DNA of 64,000 nucleotides from an uncultured Candidatus Rokubacteria bacterium (GCA_963840495.1 CAWIZN010000044.1:194055-258054), one strand, 5' to 3'; shown: positions 9,026 through 61,277, counted from the stretch's first letter. Made by a program: numbers and translations. The notes: generated by a model not told the origin, from the sequence alone.

Positions 9026-9055
9026 TTGACACTTCGCGCAACGTCTGACCATAGT
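9026..9055 (+). promoter_or_regulatory. sigma70-type promoter TTGACA-N18-CATAGT, leaderless layout for the DUF898 gene
   Basis: TTGACA at 9026-9031 and CATAGT at 9050-9055. The ATG at 9062 lies 6 nt after the -10 element. Confidence 0.45.
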
Positions 9056-9061
9056 GCGCTC

Positions 9062-10142
9062 ATGGCGCAACACGCGGGATCGGCCGGATCGTTCTTCCGG
9101 AAACCGGCCCCGCCGGCCGCTCCACCGCCGCCCACGTTTCGACCACCCCTGCCGCCGTCCGGCCTGGGCGTTCCCGACGCGGTCCCACCGCCGCTGCCGG
9201 CGGCCCGGCGCCGCCTGTCCTTCCACGGCACGGGCGGGACGCTCTTCGGGATCCACGTCGTCAACGTGCTCTTCACCGTGCTCACGCTCGGCGTCTACTA
9301 CTTCTGGGGCAAGACGCGCATCCGGCGCTATCTCTTCGGCGAGAGCGCCTTCGAAGGGGACCGCTTCGCCTATCACGGCACCGCGCAGGAGCTCCTCCTC
9401 GGCTTCGTGAAGGCCTTCGTGGTCTTCTTCGTGCCCATCGTCGTCCTGACGGTGGTGCGCGACGTGCTCGACGTCGGCCCGGTGATCAAGGGGGCGGCGG
9501 CGGTGTCGATCTCGCTCCTGTTCCTGATGTTCCTCCCCGTGGCGATGGTGGGCGCTCGCCGGTACCGGCTGAGCCGCACCTCCTGGCGGGGCATCCGCTT
9601 CTCCTTCCGCGGGGCCGCCTTCGAGTTCGTCAAGATCTTCGTCAAGGGCACCTTCCTCACCGGGCTGACGTTCGGGCTCTACTACCCGTTCTTCGTGACC
9701 CGGCGGCAGGCCTTCATGATCGCGCACTCCTACTTCGGCAATGAGCGGTTCGACTTCGACGGGCGGGGCCGGGAGCTGTTCGGCCCCTACCTCCTCTCGG
9801 TCCTGCTCACGCTGCCCACGCTCGGGCTCTGCTGGGTCTGGTTCCTCGCCCGCAAGCGGCGGTTCTTCTGGGAGCACACCACCTTCGGGCGCGGCCCGGT
9901 TCGGCTCGACGGTCACGGGCGGCGCGCTGCTCGGCCTCTGGGTGGTCAATGCCATCCTGCTCGTCTGCACGCTTGGCCTCGCCTGGCCGTGGGTGCGGGT
10001 GAGGAATATCAACTTCGCCTTCCGCTACCTCGCGCTGGACGGACCGCTCGACCTCGAGCGCATCCGGCAGCAGGCCCAGCAGGCGTCCGCCACGGGCGAG
10101 GGCCTGGCCGGCTTCCTCGACACCGGCTTCGACCTCGGCTAG
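9062..10142 (+). pseudogene. DUF898 (YjgN-family) multi-pass membrane protein, one frameshift
   Basis: MAQHAGSAGSFFRKP...LSFHGTGGTLFGIHVVNVLFTVLTLGVYYFWGKTRIRRYLFGES...YRLSRTSWRGIRFSFRG... continues in track ORF 9741..10142 (ARFGSTVTGGALLGLWVVNAILLVCTLGLAWPWVRVRNINFAFRYLALDG...). This is the duplicated YjgN/DUF898 repeat pattern. The shift is at the ggg run 9887-9889. Confidence 0.75.
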
Positions 10143-10277
10143 AGCGATGATAAGGGCCCATCTGCTTCGTTGGCGCCCTCGACCGCCGCCACGTAGGCTT
10201 GCGAGACCGTCTCGGGGCCCGACGGCCTCGCGTGCGGCTCGGGCGCCGCCTCGCAGCTGGACCCTCTCATCGCTCTA
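10140..10277 (+). repeat. MITE-like repeat family A, copy 1 (138 bp)
   Basis: It begins tagagcgatgataagggcccatctgcttcgttggcgccctcg and ends gggcgccgcctcgcagctggaccctctcatcgctcta. The outer 11 bp are perfect inverted repeats and the next ~27 bp are imperfect. Its first three bases are the TAG stop of the DUF898 gene. Confidence 0.85.
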
Positions 10278-10306
10278 CGGTTTCTCACGGAGGCGGTGGC
10301 ATCTCG

Positions 10307-11431
10307 ATGGCCGGGCTCGTGCGGCGCGAGTGGGCGGCGCACTACCTGGACGGGCAGACCGCCATCCGCTATCCCGCGACCGTCCGGCTGATGGGCGAGG
10401 GGCTCGAGGTGACCACGGCCTCGGGGTGGGTGCGGCTCTGGCCCTACCGGGACATCCGCCAGACGCAGGGATTCTACGAAGGCGAGGAGGTCCGGCTCGA
10501 GCGGGGCGGGGAGCTGGCGGAGGCCGTCATCGTGTCGGATCCGGCATTTCTGCACAGCCTCCACGAGGCGGCGCCCCAGGCCTCCGGCTTCCACGATCCC
10601 GCGGGACGAGGCCGGCGGGTGCGCCTCACCGCCCTGGCGGGCGTTGCGGTCATCGGCATCACGGCGGCGCTCTATCTCTGGGGCATTCCGCTCATCGCCG
10701 CCCTCGCCGCCCCCCGGGTGCCCGTGGCCTGGGAGGAGAGCCTGGGGCGCGCCGTGACCGACCAGCTCGCCCCGCCCGACCGCATGTGCGCGAGTCCGAG
10801 CGGGCAGCGCGCGCTCGACACGATCGTGGCCCGCCTGACGGCGGCGGCGCCGCCCTCTCCCTACACGTTTCGCGCGCGCGTGGTCAATGCCCCTGACGTC
10901 AATGCGCTCGCCGCGCCGGGCGGCTACATCGTGGTCTTCCGCGGCCTGGTCGAGCGGGCGCGCACGCCCGACGAGCTCGCGGGGGTCCTCGCCCACGAGA
11001 TCGAGCACGTCCTGCACCGGCACACGACCCGCGCGGTGATCCAGCACGCGTCGACCGGGCTCCTGCTCGCGGCCCTCACCGGCGACATGACGGGGCCGCT
11101 CGCCTACGGGCTCGAGAGCGCGCGGGTTCTCGGCCAGCTCCAGTACAGCCGCCGTGCCGAGGAGGAGGCGGACCGGGACGGGATGAAGCTGCTCCTCGCC
11201 GCCCGCGTTGCTCCCGACGGGATGATCGGCTTCTTCGACGAGCTGGCCAAGGGCGACCACCCGCGGCGCGTGCTGCGCTATCTGTCGACCCATCCGAGTC
11301 CGAGCGATCGGATCGCCACCCTGCGCGAGCTCGCGGCCCGGGCCCCCGGGCCCCCGACCCCCGTCCTGACCGATCAGCAGTGGCAGGACCTGAAGGCGAT
11401 CTGCACCGCCGCCCCGCCCCCAGCGCCCTGA
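10307..11431 (+). CDS. M48-family zinc metallopeptidase with N-terminal accessory domain and TM segment
   Basis: ATG at 10307 after GGAGG (in frame within track ORF 10199..11431). It carries the HExxH motif in ...ELAGVLAHEIEHVLHRHTTR... plus a downstream EEEADRDG glutamate. A TM helix (LTALAGVAVIGITAALYLWGIPLIAAL) precedes the catalytic domain. Confidence 0.85.
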   Translation: MAGLVRREWAAHYLDGQTAIRYPATVRLMGEGLEVTTASGWVRLWPYRDIRQTQGFYEGEEVRLERGGELAEAVIVSDPAFLHSLHEAAPQASGFHDPAGRGRRVRLTALAGVAVIGITAALYLWGIPLIAALAAPRVPVAWEESLGRAVTDQLAPPDRMCASPSGQRALDTIVARLTAAAPPSPYTFRARVVNAPDVNALAAPGGYIVVFRGLVERARTPDELAGVLAHEIEHVLHRHTTRAVIQHASTGLLLAALTGDMTGPLAYGLESARVLGQLQYSRRAEEEADRDGMKLLLAARVAPDGMIGFFDELAKGDHPRRVLRYLSTHPSPSDRIATLRELAARAPGPPTPVLTDQQWQDLKAICTAAPPPAP

Positions 11432-11453
11432 CGCGCCGCTGACCGCCGCCAGG

Positions 11454-11828
11454 CTACACCAGGATCGTGTGGAGACCGCCGTTCGAGCGCCGGCTTCGCC
11501 GGCGAATCCGCTGTTCGGCGAGGCATCGGAAGCGGAGCGGAGACCTCGCGCCTCTCAGGTCGGCGGTCCCGCGCGCCGGGGCTGCCCCCCCACCGCGTCC
11601 TGCCCCGACGAGGCGGAAGATGGGGTGGTCGCGGGTCAGGGGTGGGATCTCCTGCCGCGAGCGAAGGCGTGCCCGGCTCGTCAGCCCGTCGGCGAGCACG
11701 AGGCGGCGGCCACGTTGACGGACGCTCGGCAGGTCGCCCCGTCGGATCATCCGCCAGACGGTGGAGGGGGAGACCCCCAGCGCCTGCCCGGCTTCCTCGA
11801 CGCTGACCCGCCGACCCGCGGTCGCCAT
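11454..11828 (-). CDS. excisionase-type (HTH_17/MerR-like) DNA-binding protein
   Basis: 124-aa ORF. The N-terminus, [37 protein letters not shown], is the classic excisionase-family helix-turn-helix. The C-terminal ~70 aa are low complexity and uncertain. Confidence 0.5.
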
Positions 11829-11859
11829 GCCCTGAACCTATCAACGACCGATCACTCTG

Positions 11860-13485
11860 TCAATCGTGTGCGTCCTTGAAGCGCTCGCGCAGGACCTTCT
11901 TGTCGAACTTGCCCACGCTGGTCTTGGGCACCGCCTCGATGAAGACGACGCGGTCGGGCAGCCACCACTTGGCGACCCGCGGGGTCAGGTATTCGAGAAT
12001 CTCCTCGGCGGTGAGCTGGCCGGCGAACTCGGGCTTGGGCACGACGCAGGCCAGGGGCCGCTCCACCCAGGTGGGGTGGGGCACCGCGATCACCGCGGCC
12101 TCGAGCACCTTCGGGTGGCCCATGATCGTGGTCTCCATGTCGACGCTCGAGATCCACTCGCCGCCGGACTTGATCAGGTCCTTGGTGCGATCGGTGATCT
12201 GGATATAGCCGTCGGGGTCGAGGGAGGCGACGTCGCCCGTGCGGAACCAGCCGTCCTCGGTGAACTGGGCCGCGCCCTCCGGGTTGTTGTAGTACCCGCT
12301 CGTCACCCACGGCCCGCGCACCTGGATCTCGCCGACGCTCTTGCCGTCCCACGGCAGCACCCGGCCCGTGTCGTCGACGATCCGCATGTCCACCCCCGCG
12401 ATGGGCGCCCCCTGCTTGGCGCGGACGTCGTAGCGCTCCGCCTCCGGCCGGTCGTCCATGTAGGAGCGCGGCCGGCACACGCTGCCGAGCGGGGACATCT
12501 CGGTCATGCCCCAGGCGTGGAGCATATAGGCCCCGTACTTCTTGTCGAAGAGCTCGATCAGGCTCTTGGGCGCCGCCGAGCCGCCGATGGGGATGCAGCG
12601 GATGGAGGAGATGTCCCACTGGGGCTCCTTCTCGAGGATGCCCTGGATGGCGATCCACACGGTGGGCACCGCCCCCACCACGGTGACCTTCTCGTTGTGG
12701 ACGATCTCGATGATGTCGCGCGGCTGGGGATTGGGGCCGCCGAAGAGCTGGGTGGAGCCGTTCATGACGCCCGCGAAGGGCACGCACCAGGCATTGGCGT
12801 GGAACATGGGCACGATGTGCAGGATCACGTCCCGCTCCGACAGCCCGAGCACGTCCGCGGTGGACGACGCGAAGCAGTGCAGATAGATGCCGCGGTGGCT
12901 GTAGAGGACGCCCTTGGGATGGCCCGTCGTGCCGGAGGTGTAGCACATGCCCGCGGCGTCCGTCTCCTCGAGCGTCGGCCACGCCTCGACGGGCGCGGCG
13001 TCGGCGAGGAGCGCCTCGTAGTCGATCGCGCCCGGCGGGATCTCGGCGCCCGGCGTGTCCTTCATGACGATGAAGTGCTCGACGGTCTTCAGATCCTTCT
13101 TGATCGGCTCGAGCAGGGGCCAGACGCTGGCATCCACGATCAGGACCCGGTCCTCGGCGTGGTTGACGATATAGGTGATGTCCTGGGCGGAGAGCCGGAT
13201 GTTCACCGTGTGCAGCACCATGCCCATGAGCGGCGCCGCGAAGTACGCCTCGAGATGCCGGTGGGAGTTCCACGCGAAGGTCCCCACGCGGTCGCCCTTC
13301 CGGATGCCGAGCTTGGCGAGCGCCGCGGCGAGGCGGCAGACGCGATCCGCATAGTCGGCGTAGGTGTAGCGCTGAAGGCCGACCCCCGGCACGCGCGTCG
13401 CGAGCGTCTTTTTGTGGAACAGCTTCCGCGTCCGCTCGAAGAACTGGGTGAGCGTGAGCGGATAGTCCATGATCAAGCCCTTCAT
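11860..13485 (-). CDS. long/medium-chain fatty-acid--CoA ligase
   Basis: Start moved to ATG 13485 ([19 protein letters not shown]...), preceded by GGGAGAA. AMP-binding motifs are present: [18 protein letters not shown], ...GWFRTGDVA... and ...[15 protein letters not shown]. The frame is intact. Confidence 0.85.
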
Positions 13486-13617
13486 CGCATCGTTCTCCCG
13501 GGTCCTTCGAGGTGACGCGGCGAAAGCGCACGGATGGTGGCCGCGGGCCGTTCCCCGCCCTAACATAGGAGGGCCGCGCGAGCCTGTCAATTCGGCCTGT
13601 CCCGGGGTGCGACCCCT

Positions 13618-13646
13618 TTGCGCCCGGCCGCCCCTTGCGGTAAGGT
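13618..13646 (+). promoter_or_regulatory. sigma70-type promoter TTGCGC-N17-TAAGGT, leaderless layout
   Basis: TTGCGC at 13618-13623 and TAAGGT at 13641-13646. The ATG at 13654 lies 7 nt after the -10 element, with no SD. Confidence 0.4.
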
Positions 13647-13653
13647 GTCGGCC

Positions 13654-15716
13654 ATGAACTCACGCTGGGACGACGCCGCGGCGCAGGGCCTCTCCGATCT
13701 CGATCTGCTCGTGTACGCCTCGCGCCTGATCGGCGCCGAGACCTCGCTCGTCGTCTGGGGCGGCGGGAACACGTCGGTCAAGCGCACGGAGCGCGATCAC
13801 CGCGGCCGCGAGGTGCGGGTGCTCCGCGTCAAGGGCAGCGGCTCCGATCTGAAGAGCATCCAGAAGAAGGACTTCCCCGGCGTCGTGATCGACGACATCC
13901 GGGCCCTCCTCGAGCGCCCGGACATGGACGACCAGGTGATGGTCGACTACTTCGCTCATGCCCTGCTCGAGCCCGCGAGCCCGCGCCCGTCCATCGAGAC
14001 GCCGCTCCACGGCTTCCTCGCCCCCGACGCGATCATCCACACCCATGCCGACGCGGTCGTCTCGCTCACCAACAATGACCGCTGCGCCGAGGTGCTCCGA
14101 GAGGTGTACGGCGGCGACGTCGTCTCGCTCGCCTATCTGCGCCCGGGCTTCCCCATCGCCAAGCAGGTGGCCCAGACCTTCGAGGCGCATCCCGAGGCGC
14201 GCGCCATCCTGCTCGAGAAGCACGGGACCATCTGCTGGGGCGCCACGGTGAAGGAGGCCTATCTCTCGACGATCGAGCTGATCAGCCGCGCCGAGGAGGC
14301 CATCGCCCATCGCGCGAAGGGCCGGGCGCGCTTCGGCGGCGTCGCCGTGACGGCGCCGGCGCCCGAGGCGCGGCGCCGCGTGGCCCTCGCCGTGGCGCCC
14401 CGGCTGCGCGGCCTGCTCGGCCGCGACCGGCGCGTGATCCTGACCTTCGACGACAGCGCCGACGTGCTCGAGTTCGCGGCCTCGAAGGACGCGCGCGAGC
14501 TCTGCCATGTCGGCCCCGCCACGCCCGACCACACGATCTACACCAAGCGGCTGCCGTGCTTCGCCGCGTGCGACCGGCCGGACGATCCCGACGCGGTGCA
14601 GGCGGCGGTCGCAGACGGCGGTGGACGCGTTCGTCGCGGACTACACGGCGTACTTCAACGGGCACAATCGCTACGGCGCGACCCTCACCGATCCGTTTCC
14701 GCGGGTCGTCGCGGTGGCCGGGCTCGGCATGTTCACGGCGGGGAAGGATCGCCGGACCTCGGGCATCGTCAGCGACATCTACCACCACACGATCTCCGTG
14801 CTCGGCGCGGCCGAGCAGCTTCGGGCGCTACGTCTCGCTCTCCGCCCAGGACGCCTTCGACATCGAGTACTGGCCGCTCGAGCTGTACAAGCTCACGCTG
14901 GCGCCGCCGGAGCGCGAGCTGGCCCGGCGCATCGCGCTGGTCACGGGCGGGGCGAGCGGGATCGGCCGCGCCGCCGCCCTGCGGCTGGCCGCCGAGGGCG
15001 CCCACGTGGTCGTGACCGACCTGGACGCGGCGGGCGCGCGCAAGGTCGCCGACGAGGTGACGGCGGCCTCGGGGGCCGGGCGCGCCGTCGGCGTCGGGAT
15101 GGACGTGGCGCGCGAGGACTCCGTGCGGGCGGCCTTCGAGGAAGCCGTCCTCGCCTATGGCGGCATCGACATCGTGGTCTCCAATGCCGGGATCGCGCAC
15201 TCGACGCCCATCGACCAGCTCACGCTGTCCGACTGGGAGCGCTCGTTCTCCGTGAACTCGACGGGCCACTTCCTGGTGGCGCGCGAGGGGCTGCGCATCA
15301 TGAAGGCCCAGGGCCTCGGCGGCGCCTTCGTCTTCGTCGCCACGAAGAACGTCATGTCGCCCGGCAAGGACTTCGCCGCGTACTCGGCATCGAAGGCCGC
15401 CGAGGCCCAGCTCGCCAAGGTGCTGGCGCTCGAGGGCGGCCCCCACGGCATCCGGTCGAATCTGGTCAATCCCGATGCCGTCTTCCGCGACTCCAAGCTC
15501 TGGTCGGAGGAGATCCGGCGCGAGCGCGCCCGGGCCCAGGGCATCGCGGTCGAGGATCTCGAGGACTTCTACCGCAAGCGCAATATCCTGGCCCGGCCCA
15601 TCCTCGCCGAGGACGTGGCCGAGGCGGTGCTGTTCCTCGCGTCCGACCGCTCGGCCAAGACCACCGGCTGCACCATCACGGTGGATGGCGGCGTCAAGGA
15701 CGCCTTCCCCCGCTAG
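13654..15716 (+). pseudogene. bifunctional class II aldolase/adducin-domain + short-chain dehydrogenase (rhamnulose-1-phosphate aldolase/alcohol dehydrogenase type), two frameshifts
   Basis: The N-terminal part is MNSRWDDAAAQGLSDLDLLVYASRLIGAETSLVVWGGGNTSVK...IIHTHADAVVSL... (aldolase_II). The middle piece is in track ORF 14507.. (AVDAFVADYTAYFNGHNRYGATLTDPFPRVVAVAGLGMFTAGKD...). The C-terminal SDR is in ORF 14556..15716 (ALVTGGASGIGRAAA...YSASKAA...). Shifts are near 14615 and 14818. Confidence 0.8.
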
Positions 15717-15892
15717 AGCGATGATAAGGGCCCATCTGCTTCGTTGGCGCCCTCGACTGCCGGCCACGTAACGCGCGGTGTCGACCGACGACTTTCGTCT
15801 CGACCAACTGGCCCCGCACTCGCCCTACGAGAGTACGCCTCGCGTGCGGCTGTCGGGCGCCGCCTCGCAGCTGGACCCTTCTCATCGCTCTA
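15714..15892 (+). repeat. MITE-like repeat family A, copy 2 (179 bp, longest)
   Basis: It has the same termini as copy 1 (tagagcgatgataagggcccatctgcttcgttggcgccctcg ... cgggcgccgcctcgcagctggacccttctcatcgctcta) and a longer core. Its first TAG is the stop codon of the aldolase/SDR gene. Confidence 0.85.
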
Positions 15893-15928
15893 GCCGCGCG
15901 TTTTTCCGACAGACTCCTAGGCTAGATC

Positions 15929-16855
15929 GTGGCGCTCCGCTTCGGTGCTTTTCTGTCGCTGCATGCGCCCGAGGCGCAGTTCGCGCTGGCGCGGCGCGTG
16001 GAGGAGCTCGGCTTCGACTCGGTGTGGACGGGCGACCACGTGTCCTTTCACAACCCGATCTACGAGTCGCTGACGCTGCTCGCCGCCTACGCCGGCATCA
16101 CGCGGCGGATCAAGCTCGGCAGCGCGGTCTATCTCCTGGCCCTCCGCCATCCCACGGTGGCGGCCAAGATCACCGGGACGCTCGACACGCTGTCGGGCGG
16201 CCGGCTCATCTTCGGCGTCGGCGTGGGCGGGGAGAACCCCAAGGAGTTCGAGGCCTGCGGCATTCCGCACCACGAGCGCGGCGCCCGGGTCACGGAGGGG
16301 ATCGAGGTGGTGCGCGCGCTCTGGCGCGACTCGCCCGCCACCTTCAAGGGCCGCTTCACCCAGTTCGAGGGCGTGAGCATCGATCCCAAGCCCGTGCAGC
16401 GCCCCGCGCCCCCCATCTGGATCGGGGGTCGGTCCGACGCCGCGCTGGCGCGCGCGGGGCGGCAGGGGGATGGCTGGGTGTCCTACGTCGTCCAGCCCGA
16501 TCGCTACCGGCAGAGCCTCGACAAGATCCGCGCGGCGGCCGCGGAGGCCGGTCGATCCCTCGACGGGTTCGTGGCCGCGCATCTCACGTTCATCACGGTG
16601 GGGCGTGACTACGAGAGCGCCGAGCGGCGCTGGGTCGAGCGGCTCAGCCGGCGCTATGCGCAGGACTTCGGGCCGCTCGCCCGGAAGTACGGCGTCATCG
16701 GCACGCCCGAGCAATGTCTCGAGCAGCTCGATCGCTTCGCCTCGGCGGGCTGCGGCTATTTTCTGATGAATCCCATCGGCGACCCCGCGGACGAGCGCGA
16801 CCAGATCGAGGCCATCGCCGCCGACATCCTCCCGCGCCTCCCAGGAGGCCGATAA
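15929..16855 (+). CDS. LLM-class (luciferase-like) F420-dependent oxidoreductase
   Basis: 308-aa intact ORF (GTG start): ...LGFDSVWTGDHVSFHNPIYESLTLLAAYAGITRRIKLGSAVYLLALRHPTVAAKITGTLDTLSGGRLIFGVGVGG... This is typical of the luciferase-like monooxygenase family. Confidence 0.8.
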   Translation: MALRFGAFLSLHAPEAQFALARRVEELGFDSVWTGDHVSFHNPIYESLTLLAAYAGITRRIKLGSAVYLLALRHPTVAAKITGTLDTLSGGRLIFGVGVGGENPKEFEACGIPHHERGARVTEGIEVVRALWRDSPATFKGRFTQFEGVSIDPKPVQRPAPPIWIGGRSDAALARAGRQGDGWVSYVVQPDRYRQSLDKIRAAAAEAGRSLDGFVAAHLTFITVGRDYESAERRWVERLSRRYAQDFGPLARKYGVIGTPEQCLEQLDRFASAGCGYFLMNPIGDPADERDQIEAIAADILPRLPGGR

Positions 16856-16957
16856 CGGCCCATCTGCTTCGTTGGCGCCCTCGGCCGGGCGCTCAACGTA
16901 GAGGGACTACGCCTCGCGCCCGGCCTTCGGGCGCCGCCTCGCAGCTGGACCGTTCTC
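16851..16957 (+). repeat. MITE-like repeat family A, copy 3 (truncated, ~107 bp)
   Basis: gataacggcccatctgcttcgttggcgccctcgg ... ttcgggcgccgcctcgcagctggaccgttctc. It shares the inner arms with copies 1 and 2 but lacks the outermost tagagcgatga / tcatcgctcta. The TAA inside its left end (16853-16855) is the stop codon of the LLM gene. Confidence 0.7.
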
Positions 16958-17015
16958 GGCCTCCTGGGGCCCTTGGCGGTAGATACAGAAAGGCCAGAGC
17001 AGGGGGTGGGGTGTT

Positions 17016-18038
17016 GTGAGGGTTACGTTTCTTTGTCCTCATTTGCGGATTGCTGGGGGCGTGCGGGCGATCTTGACTCATGCCGACCGGCTGGCCGCGC
17101 GCGGCCATCAGGTGAGCATCGTGGTGCCGGCGCGGCGGGCGCTTCGGGCTTGGTGGCGGAACCGGTTTCCGCGCGCGCCGGTCTGGATGCCGACGTTGCG
17201 GGCCCGCGTCGTCTGGGTTCCCGCGTGGAGCGCGGCGGATCTGCCGGACGGGGACGCGTTGATCGCGACCGCCTGGCAATCGGCGGGGCCGGTGGCCGAG
17301 GCGCCGGCGCGGTGCGGCGCCAAGTTCTACCTCGTCCAGCACTACGAGAGCCTCTACCACGGCGACGCGGCGCGGGTGGACGAGACGTACCGCCTGCCGC
17401 TCAGGAAGATCGTCATCTCCACATGGCTCGCCGACGTCATGGCGGAGCGCTTCGCGAGCCCCGCGGCGGTGGTCGTCACCCCCGTCGACCCCGCGTTGTT
17501 TCATCCCGTCCCCGAGGCGCGGGATGGCGGCCTCTCGATGCTCATGCTCCACCACGAGTACCCGTGGAAAGGGGTGGCCGAGGGGATCGAGGTCGCGCGG
17601 CGGGTGAAGGCGCAGAACCCCGGCCTGCGGCTCATCGGCTTCGGCGTCAAGCCGCCGGCCGGCGCCTCGCCGTACGACGAGTTCTTCGCCGATCCGCCAC
17701 AGGAGCGGCTGGCCTGGCTCTATAGCCGCTGCCCGATCTATCTCTGCCCGTCCTGGGACGAGGGGCTCGGCATGCCGCCCATGGAGGCGATGGCCTGCGG
17801 CGCCGCGCTCTGCACGTACGACAATGGCGGCTGCCGGGACTACGCGATCGACGGCCGCACGGCGGTGGTGGCGCCGCGCCGCGACGTGGACGCCCTGGCC
17901 CGGGGGCTGGGGCGGCTGGTCGAGGACGGAGCCCTCCGGGACCGGATCGCCCGCGACGGCCAGACCTTCGTCACGACGCAGTTCGATTGGGCGCGGGCCA
18001 CGGCGCGATTCGAGGCCTTGCTGCTGGCCGGGCGGTAG
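17016..18038 (+). CDS. glycosyltransferase (GT4/GT1-type)
   Basis: 340-aa intact ORF: MRVTFLCPHLRIAGGVRAILTHADRLAARGHQVSIV... with a C-terminal ...CPSWDEGLGMPPMEAMACGAALCTYDNGG... (the E-x7-E-like retaining-GT motif). Confidence 0.8.
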   Translation: MRVTFLCPHLRIAGGVRAILTHADRLAARGHQVSIVVPARRALRAWWRNRFPRAPVWMPTLRARVVWVPAWSAADLPDGDALIATAWQSAGPVAEAPARCGAKFYLVQHYESLYHGDAARVDETYRLPLRKIVISTWLADVMAERFASPAAVVVTPVDPALFHPVPEARDGGLSMLMLHHEYPWKGVAEGIEVARRVKAQNPGLRLIGFGVKPPAGASPYDEFFADPPQERLAWLYSRCPIYLCPSWDEGLGMPPMEAMACGAALCTYDNGGCRDYAIDGRTAVVAPRRDVDALARGLGRLVEDGALRDRIARDGQTFVTTQFDWARATARFEALLLAGR

Positions 18039-38050: not shown

Positions 38051-39515
38051 GTGAAGAAGAAAAAGACATCAAAAACAGTTCCCAAGCGGCAGCCCGCGCG
38101 CGCAGAGTCGCGCGCGCACGAAGCCGAAGCCGCAGCCGCGGCGCGGAAGACGCAGCCGCCGAAGAAGGCCCCGACCCGTCGCCGCGCGCCCGCGCCCACC
38201 CCCGTCGAGGCGGCCGTGGTCGAGGCCGCTCCCGAGCGGGCGCTGGCCCCCAAGTCGCCGGTGGACGTGCCGGTGGACGAGGTCATCGTCCTCGAGACGC
38301 CGGAGCCGCGCTTCGCCTCGCGGGTGCTGCCGCCCGAGGCCGACCGCCCCTTTCCCGCGCCCCGGCGCGCGATCTTCTTCGACGTCGAGAATGCGAGCCG
38401 GCCGGAGCACATCGCGCGCGTGATCGAGCACCTCGAGGTGGACCGGACGGGGCGCCGCACCGACTTCGTGGCCGTCGGTAACTGGCGGGTGATCGGCCAT
38501 GACTCCGCGCGCCTGCTCGCGCGCCATGGCGCCCACCTCATCCACAGCGCGCCGTCGGTCGGTGTGCGCGACTGGAGCGATCTCAGGATCGCCGTCGGCG
38601 CCGGCGTGTGGCTGGCGAGCGCGCGCGCGGGCGACGTGCTCGAGATCATCACCAGCGACCGGGCCTTCGATGCCGTGGGTGACGTGGCGGCGAGCCTTGG
38701 CATCGAGTTCCGGCGCCTGTCCCACCAGGGCATCACGGGCGCGGCGGAAGCGCGCGCCCCGGTCAGGGAGGCGCCGACCGCATCGCGGTCAGCGGGCTAT
38801 CGCGGTCGCAGCCGGCGGCGCGGTCCCTGGCGCGATCGGGCCGCGCCCAGCGCGCCCGCTCCCGTCGCCTCCGCTCCTGTCATCTCGGCGCCCGTAGACC
38901 CGGCTCCACCTCGCGAGGTCGAGCCCGTGGTCATCGCCCCGCCGCCTCCGCCCCTCGCCGCCGGGCATCCCGCCGAGCCACGCAGCCGCGCAGACCACGC
39001 ACACCGCGCAGACCGCGCCGCGCGACGAGCTGATCGCACTGGTGCACGACCTGATGCAGCGCTCGCCGGGGCGGCCGTTGACGCTCGACACGCTGGCCAA
39101 TGCGCTCAAATCTCGCGGCTTCAGCCGCCCACCCGGCTCGCCCCGGCTCATCACCCGGCTGCGGCGCATCAAGGAGATCGCCCTGAGCCGCACCGGTGTC
39201 GTCACGCTGGTGGGCAGTCAAGATGCGGTCTCCGCGGAGGAGTTCGGCGCGGTCCAGCCCGACGTCGACGCGAGGGATGTCGACGCCGAAGACGTCGAGC
39301 CGGGCAATGTCCTGGTCAAGGACGTCGAGCCGCAAGACGTCGAAGCCCAGGACCTCGACGCCCTCGATGCCGACGAGGGCCCCGGGCCGGGGAACGAGGC
39401 GGTTCCAGGCCAGACCGCGGCCGCACCGGTGCTTCAGGATCCCCGCCGTCGCCGGTCCCGCCGCGGCGGCCGTGGTGGCCGCCGCCCTCGCCCCGAGACC
39501 GCCCGAGCGGGCTGA
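38051..39515 (+). pseudogene. NYN-domain (LabA/PIN-like RNase) protein with OST-HTH/LOTUS-like C-terminal module, one frameshift
   Basis: The N-terminus is Lys/Arg-rich. A NYN-like core follows: ...RRAIFFDVENASRPEHIARVIEHLEVDRTGRRTDFVAVGNWRVIGHDSARLLARHGAHLIHSAPSVGVRDWSDLRIAVGAGVWLASARAGDVLEIITSDRAFDAVGDVAASLGIEFRRL. After a Pro-rich linker the protein continues in track ORF 39042..39515 frame: DELIALVHDLMQRSPGRPLTLDTLANALKSRGFSRPPGSPRLITRLRRIKEIALSRTGVVTLVG. It ends with acidic DV(D/E)-rich repeats and an Arg-rich tail. The shift is near 38975. Confidence 0.6.
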
Positions 39516-39520
39516 GCGAG

Positions 39521-39699
39521 GCGAGGGCCGCAGCCGCAGGCGAGGTGAGCGGATCCGGGAATGGGTGCGAGCGGAGCGAGGGCGAGCCGCAGCCGCAGGC
39601 GAGGTGAGCGGATCCGGGAATGGGTGCGAGCGGCGCGAGGGGCGAGCCGCAGCCGCAGGCGAGGTGAGCGGATCCGGGAATGGGTCCGAGCGGAGCGAG
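39521..39699. repeat. tandem repeat, 3 copies, period 59-60 bp
   Basis: The unit is gcgagccgcagccgcaggcgaggtgagcggatccgggaatgggtgcgagcggagcgagg. The ccgcagccgcagg landmark recurs at 39527, 39586 and 39646. The 59-bp period breaks any reading frame. The repeat lies between convergent stop codons (39515 and 39744). Confidence 0.85.
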
Positions 39700-39743
39700 G
39701 ACGGCCCGGCCGGCGCCGCCGCGATCGAGCGGGGCGGCGCCGG

Positions 39744-51692: not shown

Positions 51693-51802
51693 GGATGGGT
51701 CCTCCGACCACCGCCGACTTCGTACCGGTCACCCGGAGAGCCGTCCCACTCCGGCCGCTGTGTCGTCGTCTCGCGGGGCGGGAAGGGCTCTGGGACCCAT
51801 CC
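51693..51802 (+). repeat. repeat family B, copy 1 (~110 bp, 10-bp terminal inverted repeats ggatgggtcc / ggacccatcc)
   Basis: ggatgggtcctccgaccaccgccgacttcgtaccggtcacccggagagccgtcccactccggccgctgtgtcgtcgtctcgcggggcgggaagggctctgggacccatcc lies between convergent stops (51639 and 51892). A second copy is at 61163. Confidence 0.75.
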
Positions 51803-61162: not shown

Positions 61163-61277
61163 CGATGGGTCCTCCGACCACCGCCGACTCCGTACCGGTC
61201 ACCCGTGGAGCCGTTCCCATCCTCGGCCGCTATGTCGTCGTCTCAGGCAGAGCGGAAGGGCTCTGACGGACTCCATC
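61163..61277 (+). repeat. repeat family B, copy 2
   Basis: gatgggtcctccgaccaccgccgactccgtaccggtcacccgtggagccgttcccatcctcggccgctatgtcgtcgtctcaggcagagcggaagggctctgacggactccatc is collinear with 51693..51802 with scattered substitutions and indels. It lies between convergent genes and overlaps the 3' end of the GNAT ORF. Confidence 0.7.

Follow-up and report, generated by a model that had tools for sequence, protein, structure and literature searches.

A mobile palindromic repeat family with a CTAG target at the stop codons of Rokubacteria genes

The window analysed here is a 64,000-nt stretch of DNA (70% G+C) from an uncultured Candidatus Rokubacteria bacterium. It carries three copies of a long hairpin-forming repeat, referred to as family A, at the ends of a DUF898 gene, an aldolase/short-chain dehydrogenase (SDR) gene and a luciferase-like monooxygenase (LLM) gene. 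We judge it probable, at about 0.75, that the three repeats are a mobile palindromic element with a CTAG/TA target. The family is new but of a familiar type, and is best read as a non-autonomous element of ∼125–150 bp that is abundant across Rokubacteria (Methylomirabilota) and resembles MITEs (miniature transposable elements with inverted repeats) or REPINs, the hairpin-forming relatives of repetitive extragenic palindromes (REPs). No description of family A or of Rokubacteria repeats was found in the searchable literature.

The two inner arms of the repeat, GGCCCATCTGCTTCGTTGGCGCCCTCG and GGGCGCCGCCTCGCAGCTGGACC (27 and 23 nt), are invariant among the three copies. Each occurs exactly three times in the whole window, with 0 mismatches and always on the + strand, whereas shuffled sequences gave expectations of 0.00 and 0.01. 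An nhmmer search of the whole window with a profile built from 77 family members recovered copies 1–3 and no fourth. The hairpin of copy 1 (10140–10277, + strand; nhmmer E=1e-19) consists of the outer stem TAGAGCGATGA/TCATCGCTCTA, the conserved inner arms and a rearranged apex, and that of copy 2 (15714–15892, + strand) has the same outer stem with an enlarged apex. Copy 3 (16839–16969, + strand; E=2.5e-34) belongs to a different subfamily; its outer stem, CCAGGAGGCCGA at 16841–16852 and TCGGCCTCCTGG at 16956–16967 (+ strand), is perfectly complementary. Perfect pairing of the outer arms extends over 11–12 bp in all three. Each copy is predicted to fold into a long imperfect hairpin of 130–180 nt, with + strand folding energies of −78, −97 and −97 kcal/mol for copies 1–3 and z-scores of −4.4, −7.0 and −9.4 against shuffles; the predicted fold of the − strand is in each case more stable than that of the + strand. 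The arm counts, profile search and folding agree with a preliminary description of this DNA, which had reported three + strand copies with a long hairpin fold. The inverted termini that it took to be common to all three are shared by copies 1 and 2 but not by copy 3, and its extent for copy 3 (16851–16957) falls short of the actual hairpin.

The stops that it assigned to the three upstream genes, TAG at 10140, TAG at 15714 and TAA at 16853, agree with the reading frames and with Pfam. The Pfam models are complete before the stop in the DUF898, class II aldolase/short-chain dehydrogenase and LLM genes; the DUF898 match ends 10 residues 5′ of TAG 10140, and the adh_short_C2 profile ends at residue 380 of 386 in the aldolase/SDR gene.

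That family A is mobile is evident from filled and empty orthologous sites between close relatives. Empty sites were found for copy 1 at L107 and L108 and for copy 2 at L078 and L103–L106 (fetched loci are numbered with an L). The DUF898–M48 peptidase junction of L107, at 95% nucleotide identity, reads gga TAG g|gcggcaatctcgATG where the window reads ggc TAG (10143–10292) gcggtggcatctcgATG; followed through to the M48 start codon, this is gga TAG g gcggcaatctcg ATG in L107 versus ggc TAG (150 nt) gcggtggcatctcg ATG in the window. Orthologues of the copy 2 junction read …cgg TAG cgc GTG or …cgc TAG cc ATG, or have an overlapping ATGA, and in L103–L106 the TAG is present with the LLM start 2–4 nt further on. 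In the window, 209 nt are inserted directly 3′ of this TAG. Both insertions include right-hand tails beyond the ends originally given for these copies. The tail of copy 1 (10278–10292, + strand), at whose end the insertion relative to the L107 empty site stops, is a degenerate remnant of a second right-hand arm, R2. The tail of copy 2, gccgcgcgtttttccgacagactcctaggctag (15893–15925, + strand), is an R2 that ends in CTAG 3 nt 5′ of the LLM start GTG at 15929; it is not found in the empty sites and fits the subfamily tail CTAG-CCGGGTTTCTCCGACAGGCTC-CTAG.

The TAG that precedes the element at copies 1 and 2 is a stop codon native to the host, and the element starts immediately after it. The DUF898 stop (10140–10142, + strand) coincides with the first three bases of the copy 1 left arm and with the insertion point, and the aldolase/SDR stop (15714–15716, + strand) is the insertion point of copy 2. 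The idea that the element supplies these two stops fails, because the TAG is already present at the left junction in the empty sites. Insertion-site preference, one of two causes proposed for the stop link, is instead what the comparison with insertion-free orthologues identifies, the host TAG standing exactly where copies 1 and 2 begin. Relatives without the element have SDR–LLM and DUF898–M48 spacers of 2–13 nt. The statement that every copy fills the spacer to the next gene holds for copies 1 and 2 but not for copy 3, which leaves ∼47 nt to the first possible start of the glycosyltransferase gene GT4.

Two of the host genes have disturbed frames. The DUF898 gene (9026–10142) has one extra base near 9890 relative to L107, and the aldolase/SDR gene (13618–15716) is split over three frames, near 14610–14630 and 14812, while it forms a single 686-residue open reading frame (ORF) in L104 and L106. 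These frameshifts reflect either pseudogenes or assembly indel errors.

Across the family, insertion takes place next to or into 5′-CTAG-3′ and leaves TA or TAG on both sides. The left terminus is TAG in 64 of 92 copies, against 5.7% expected. This TAG is preceded by C in 50 of the 64 (GTAG context, 9/64) and, in the window's own subfamily, in 85 of 87 copies, as compared with 74 of 201 TAG stops (37%) away from elements. The right side shows CTA(G) in 53 of 92 copies, with peaks at the ends of the two right-hand arms R1 and R2, and G follows the right-hand CTA in 39/53 and 79/87 copies. A left TAG and a right CTA occur together in 37 of 92 copies. Empty sites carry a single TAG; copy 2 is flanked by CTAG…CTAG and copy 1 by TAG…GAG.

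The association with stop codons noted for the window holds across the family. Among confident gene calls, the stop of 50 of 58 co-oriented upstream genes falls within the left arm (43 TAG, 4 TAA and 3 TGA), 30 of 42 convergent genes stop in R1 or R2, and both stops lie inside the element in 10 of 20 convergent pairs. The 48 resolved contexts comprise 20 convergent pairs, 16 tandem pairs with the left arm at the stop, 11 tandem pairs with the right end at the stop and 1 divergent pair. Of the frames entering the left arm, ∼43 are that of the TAG and 3 that of the TGA/TAA, with 0 reading through, a bias that excludes random landing with capping of any entering frame; random frame capture was thus ruled out as the source of the stop link. 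The common orientation of the window copies did not extend to the family, since the tandem contexts divide 16 versus 11 and two copies 6 kb apart on one contig (L114) have opposite orientations. An apparent strong orientation bias in the window's subfamily (27 versus 1) proved to be an artefact of the TAG in the search pattern, unselected copies giving 6 versus 3.

Stop usage away from elements is 380 TGA, 201 TAG and 42 TAA. The window contains 19 CTAGs, versus 177 expected from base composition, and gene stops account for 10 of the 19; in related sequence totalling 774 kb, they account for 79 of the 165 CTAGs outside elements (48%). Because CTAG is rare and about half of its occurrences are at stops, a CTAG-specific insertion meets a stop about half the time before selection. 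A CTAG-specific element in a 70% G+C genome with few CTAGs besides NNC-TAG stops therefore appears to own the stops of its host.

Two further observations concern TAG and CTAG. TAG makes up 32–38% of stops in these 70% G+C genomes (window and 774 kb), and family-A copies are present at a minority of these stops only; TGA is usually more dominant at such G+C, so the TAG share seems high. The window also contains a second repeat family, with two copies at 51694–51752 and 61164–61222 that are 90% identical over 59 nt and lie ∼55–65 nt downstream of genes ending in CTAG (51636 and 61096).

The family is widely dispersed. A core 20-mer, CCATCTGCTTCGTTGGCGCC, used as a probe against a species collection with one genome per species, matched more than 101 stretches in at least 41 species-representative assemblies, and the left arm of the window's own subfamily, used against metagenomes, matched at least 120 stretches; all counts here and below are among the matches listed. 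These stretches lie at unrelated loci and support the earlier view of a dispersed MITE-like family rather than a local duplication. The copies collected number 109 from 41 genomes and 127 from metagenomes. Labels of Rokubacteria, Rokuibacteriota, Methylomirabilota or NC10 are borne by 33 of the 41 assemblies. The core 20-mer had 0 matches in a scan of viral contigs, blastn with copy 1 found no match in plasmids, and a search of the whole window against Rfam 15 at the gathering threshold was negative, as was one of 10000–17100 at E<=1, apart from one chance match elsewhere.

The other 8 of the 41 assemblies are labelled Acidoferrum, Limnocylindria, Actinomycetes, Binatia, Gemmatimonadales, Planctomycetota or 'uncultured bacterium'. 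The loci with other-phylum labels are L006, L013, L014, L049, L063, L064, L065, L091 and L092, and they are either mis-binned Rokubacteria contigs or cases of horizontal spread.

The canonical layout is (C)TAG, a variable outer arm of 10–12 nt, GA(A/T)AA, a conserved structured core of ∼100 nt, the right arm R1, complementary to the outer arm, and often R2. The 5′ half of the commonest form reads (c)TAG-CAGGCTGCTGAAAAAGG-CCCATCTGC-ttcgtt-GGCGCC-ctc-GGCCGCACGC-tcaac-GTAC-agnga- and the 3′ half continues -GTAC-gcctc-GCGTGCGGCC-gtc-GGGCGCC-gcctc-GCATCTGGACC-TTTTTGAGCAGCCTGC, the last arm being R1. R1 is often followed, after 3 nt, by R2 (TTTTTCAGCAACCTGCTAG), the reverse complement of the left arm; this inverted, left-arm-like tail is 20–26 nt long with CTAG at its end. 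The window copies belong to 'GATAA' subfamilies (…GATAAGGG/CCCTTCTC…). The window's own subfamily has a modal hairpin of 125 nt and, after R1, the conserved tail CTAG-CCGGGTTTCTCCGACAGGCTC-CTAG (consensus from 48 of 84 copies), which copies 1 and 2 carry, copy 1 in degenerate form. The element is non-coding, with a modal length of 125–150 bp, and its left end closes 2 of 3 frames. Truncated, core-deleted, tandem and nested copies exist across the family; head-to-tail tandem arrays were seen at L158:11554–11909 (three copies with a 148-nt period), L121:4326–4566, L048:696–1000 and L061.

The stem is maintained by compensating changes. In an alignment of 79 copies, 96% of cells are paired, 19 of 35 pairs show compensating double changes, and double-change cells number 157 versus 31 in shuffles; when the partner is shifted by a few columns, only 21–46% of cells pair. 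The co-varying part is mainly the outer 10–12 bp, while the inner core and several mismatches are nearly invariant, so that the core, internal loops and mismatches included, is almost the same at every base in at least 41 species. The arms thus pair in every window copy as terminal inverted repeats should, but their sequence varies across the family with compensation. Because of one conserved mismatch the left arm, and only that arm, contains TGA or TAA. Mismatches are balanced between strands (33 of G-U type versus 39 of A-C type), which indicates that the pairing constraint is not specific to the transcript strand. Template-switch 'correction' of quasi-palindromes at replication is another possible origin of compensating changes, one that needs no selection.

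Copy 3 differs from copies 1 and 2 in that it really supplies the host gene with its TAA stop and four codons (PGGR), and it marks a deletion junction. LLM orthologues without the element end in …PRL-GGR-TGA or …PRF-RGR-TAG, whereas the window and its closest relatives end in …PRL-PGGR-TAA. These final 15 nt (16841–16855, + strand) are the left arm of the element, and the TAA (16853–16855) is the conserved GATAA mismatch of that arm. The suggestion that the repeat supplies stops and alters host C-termini therefore applies here, where a native GGR-TGA has become PGGR-TAA, and not at copies 1 and 2. In L102, whose LLM gene is 94% identical, LLM is followed by an element remnant that has lost its core, then by a glyoxalase gene, a complete copy sharing the unusual outer stem of window copy 3, the window's right flank and GT4; PGGR-TAA closes both the LLM and the glyoxalase gene. 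Natively, glyoxalase ends in ESAGPAVA-TAG and has after it a thiamine pyrophosphate (TPP)-enzyme gene, which is missing from the L102/window lineage. Comparison of 16970–17015 of the window with L102–L106 showed that relatives have glyoxalase and TPP-enzyme genes between LLM and GT4 where the window has neither; L106 has an additional FAD/NAD-binding reductase gene there. The deletion junctions between LLM and GT4 coincide with element copies, and the window arrangement is the expected product of recombination between the two direct copies of L102 with deletion of the glyoxalase gene. Two other explanations were discarded. The copy 3 outer stem does not derive from host coding sequence, as the same 15 nt end the L102 glyoxalase gene and the canonical arm differs at 3 compensated positions. 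The core-less hairpin of L102 is not an empty site either, as it retains the GATAAC/GTTCTC parts of the arms and is a deletion derivative.

In the mechanism that we propose, the element would insert at CTAG/TA and the NNC-TAG stop of the host would be kept at the left junction. Selection would then remove most insertions into CTAGs within genes, leaving survivors on the stops of co-directional or convergent genes. The element also brings its own stops, TGA or TAA in the second frame of the left arm and the TAGs of the right end, and a copy that lands in the last codons of a gene or becomes fused to it by an adjacent deletion therefore ends translation within a few codons, as copy 3 exemplifies. 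Effects on the mRNA, whether from a 3′ hairpin or from a spacer between coupled cistrons, are likely by-products. The CTAG/TA signature fits a DDE transposase of the IS630/Tc1 type acting in trans, and we give an IS630-type enzyme a little less than even odds of being the mobiliser; a hairpin-recognising HUH/Y1 enzyme is a less likely candidate.

Several features connect family A to the IS630/Tc1-mariner MITEs, of which the Correia elements of Neisseria are an example. Both are small and non-coding, with high copy number, long inverted arms and a hairpin; both have TA at the two ends, nested or adjacent copies, copy-mediated deletions and locations in intergenic spacers co-transcribed with the flanking genes. 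The palindromic CTAG target of family A is also on record for IS630, together with a 2-bp duplication (PMC2577343). The metagenomes that carry family A also contain IS630-family elements. One (Pfam DDE_3; L115:937–2077, repeat GTGTACTGTCCC), flanked by CTAG on each side, has the CTAG at the left terminus of a family-A copy as its exact insertion site, and a second one (L227, ∼50–1165, repeat GAGTCTCGCAGAATAGACTAACGG) has TA flanks. The transposase ORF of the L115 element ends at the TAG of the CTAG flanking one of its ends.

A number of observations weigh against an IS630-type MITE. The ends of both IS630-family elements in the fetched loci (L115 and L227) are unlike the arms of family A. An autonomous IS630-like partner with the same terminal inverted repeats was looked for, as had been suggested, and no parent with matching ends was found among the 109 + 127 copies or by clustering of 607 gene-like ORFs; nor is a left end followed by a transposase gene in any of these 236 copies. 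The terminal 10–12 bp, which vary among subfamilies, are the least conserved part of the element, the two arms changing together (19 of 35 pairs) around the nearly invariant core. Such co-varying ends are unexpected for repeats that a DDE transposase binds by sequence. Even the terminal TA pair co-varies (CAG…CTG in L142). The right end is asymmetric (R1 plus R2), the one-sided tail R2 being unlike the left arm in the window's subfamily, the right-hand TA is missing in many copies (GAG in copy 1), and family A sits almost exclusively on stop codons, unlike those MITEs. The CTAG/TA flanks do fit the TA duplication of IS630/Tc1 type that had been suggested, but TA is palindromic and a target duplication is indistinguishable from the ends of the stem.

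Candidate parents were examined and set aside for the following reasons. The left arms that lacked a core proved without exception to be R1/R2 arms or variants, and the left cores with no right arm were explained by truncation, a nested insertion or the end of a contig. The recurring ORFs in the 607-ORF clustering were housekeeping families only. A gene flanked by inverted copies in L048 is alpha/beta hydrolase-like by sequence motifs, and the 1.57-kb insert nested at the repeat apex in L206 and L173 proved to be an unrelated element of the IS110 family.

This IS110-family insertion sequence of ∼1.57 kb (Pfam Transposase_20, E=2e-15; L206:104–1811, − strand, and L173:4693–5840) lies at one and the same point of the apex, GGCCGCACGC|TCAACGTAC, in each of two different copies of family A, with element sequence neither duplicated nor lost. 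The family-A repeat seems to be a specific target of the IS110-family element. IS110/IS1111 elements likewise use REPs as targets.

The co-varying outer stems, conserved core and asymmetric tail match an enzyme recognising a folded strand, as in the REP/RAYT and IS200/IS605 systems, more closely. In a REP/REPIN-type origin, an HUH/Y1 enzyme resembling RAYT (the REP-associated tyrosine transposase) would read the hairpin in single-stranded DNA, cut by an unpaired CTAG tag and insert the repeat 3′ of a CTAG with no true duplication. We consider this origin unlikely. In its favour, compensating changes hold the stems together (96% paired; 157 versus 31) and conservation extends to the internal mismatches and loops, the tag stands at the foot of stems of different lengths (−18 to −24), and the asymmetric right end has a tail finishing in the same tetranucleotide. 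Like GTAG REPs and REPINs, family A is an extragenic palindrome with a tetranucleotide tag ending in TAG at the stem foot and used as a stop; the terminal TAG of GTAG REPs is often the stop codon of the flanking gene (PMC3733652). The tandem clusters (L158, L121, L048 and L061), the placement between co-directional or convergent and almost never divergent genes, as reported for REPs, and the use of the apex by an IS110-family element in two different copies extend the likeness. On the other hand, the base before TAG is C, not G (CTAG in 78–98% of copies), and is host sequence, the third position of the last codon, and CTAG flanks the element left and right, as a TA duplication would leave it. 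In place of a 20–40 bp REP or a pair of them, the unit is one ∼125-nt hairpin whose internal loops are conserved, and an arm alone is not a foldable palindrome. The opposite orientations at L114 argue against a strict lagging-strand bias. No RAYT homologue was detected with E. coli RayT by tblastn or phmmer in the window and the first 108 loci (∼0.8 Mb; best E 0.5), a sample far too small, and hence a weak test, for a single-copy gene.

A variant with a similarly low chance of being correct is that family A adds a third type to the 'tagged' palindromes of bacteria. It would be a REPIN-like replicator with a CTAG tag in which the ∼100-nt core would be recognised, the hairpin, its outer stem at liberty to change, would be cut at its foot and homing to stops would have evolved. 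The enzyme of such a replicator may be host-resident and single-copy, and homing to stops may be a safe-site strategy with built-in stops on both strands, going beyond a side effect of the scarcity of CTAG.

It is improbable that family A acts first of all as RNA (a bidirectional terminator, a stabiliser of mRNA 3′ ends or a translation decoupler or recoupler) and is maintained by selection at transcript level, with mobility secondary. Very stable predicted hairpins with strong covariation, located at gene 3′ ends and within operons, would suit such a role, and at copies 1 and 2 the hairpin would bring the upstream stop near the downstream start. In the commonest subfamily the inner stem is preceded by A5 and followed by T5 on either strand; in this the subfamily resembles a two-way terminator, and family A is comparable to the ERIC, BIME and SPRITE repeats, which are imperfect palindromes transcribed in operons or at 3′ ends. 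Unlike in that subfamily, with its TTTTT, the right arms of the window copies read CCCTCTC or CCCTTCTC and have no T-tract, and an intrinsic terminator scan called none at copies 1–3. Strand asymmetry is absent (33 G-U-type versus 39 A-C-type mismatches), either orientation relative to transcription occurs, and presence varies between 95%-identical genomes with flanking genes 2–13 nt apart. Moreover, the cores tolerate deletions and nested insertions. No Rfam match was obtained at the gathering threshold or E<=1, family A has no sequence relationship to ERIC, BIME or SPRITE repeats, and an exact stop-codon target is not described for those families.

Three copies within 7 kb on one strand, each directly 3′ of a gene, might suggest duplication of a local segment, an inverted repeat arising by chance or an integron attC site. 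These can be dismissed, since hundreds of copies occur at unrelated loci in at least 41 genomes, zero chance matches are expected, the copies interrupt a conserved operon that relatives have without the element, both orientations occur, and the arms contain no RYYYAAC/GTTRRRY core sites by eye.

Other small repeats are found within or near family A. A G+C-rich palindromic repeat (…TCGGAGGGGGCCTC.GCGGCCCCCTCCGA…) is nested in family-A cores just 3′ of CTGCTTCGTT at L137, L148, L189 and L190 (∼230 nt) and, in a short form, at L122 and L131. The window also contains, at 39507–39708, three tandem repeats of ∼60 nt with the motif GGCGAGGTGAGCGGATCCGG, the reverse complement of which lies within a 61-nt insertion at the family-A apex in L011, L020 and L081. 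This sharing of GGCGAGGTGAGCGGATCCGG points to a second small mobile repeat.

The two most notable points are the phylum-wide conservation of the core and the precise placement on stop codons, and with family A an uncultured soil phylum noted for its large genomes gains a very abundant repeat. Genes are remodelled by the element, which parts cistrons that are translationally coupled in relatives, rewrites C-termini and leads to gene loss through recombination between copies, and which provides a landing pad for IS110- and IS630-family elements. For the annotation of Rokubacteria, masking family A should remove spurious ORFs and explain odd C-terminal tetrapeptides. The combination of a conserved core with co-varying outer stems makes the family a good case for finding the mobilising enzyme.

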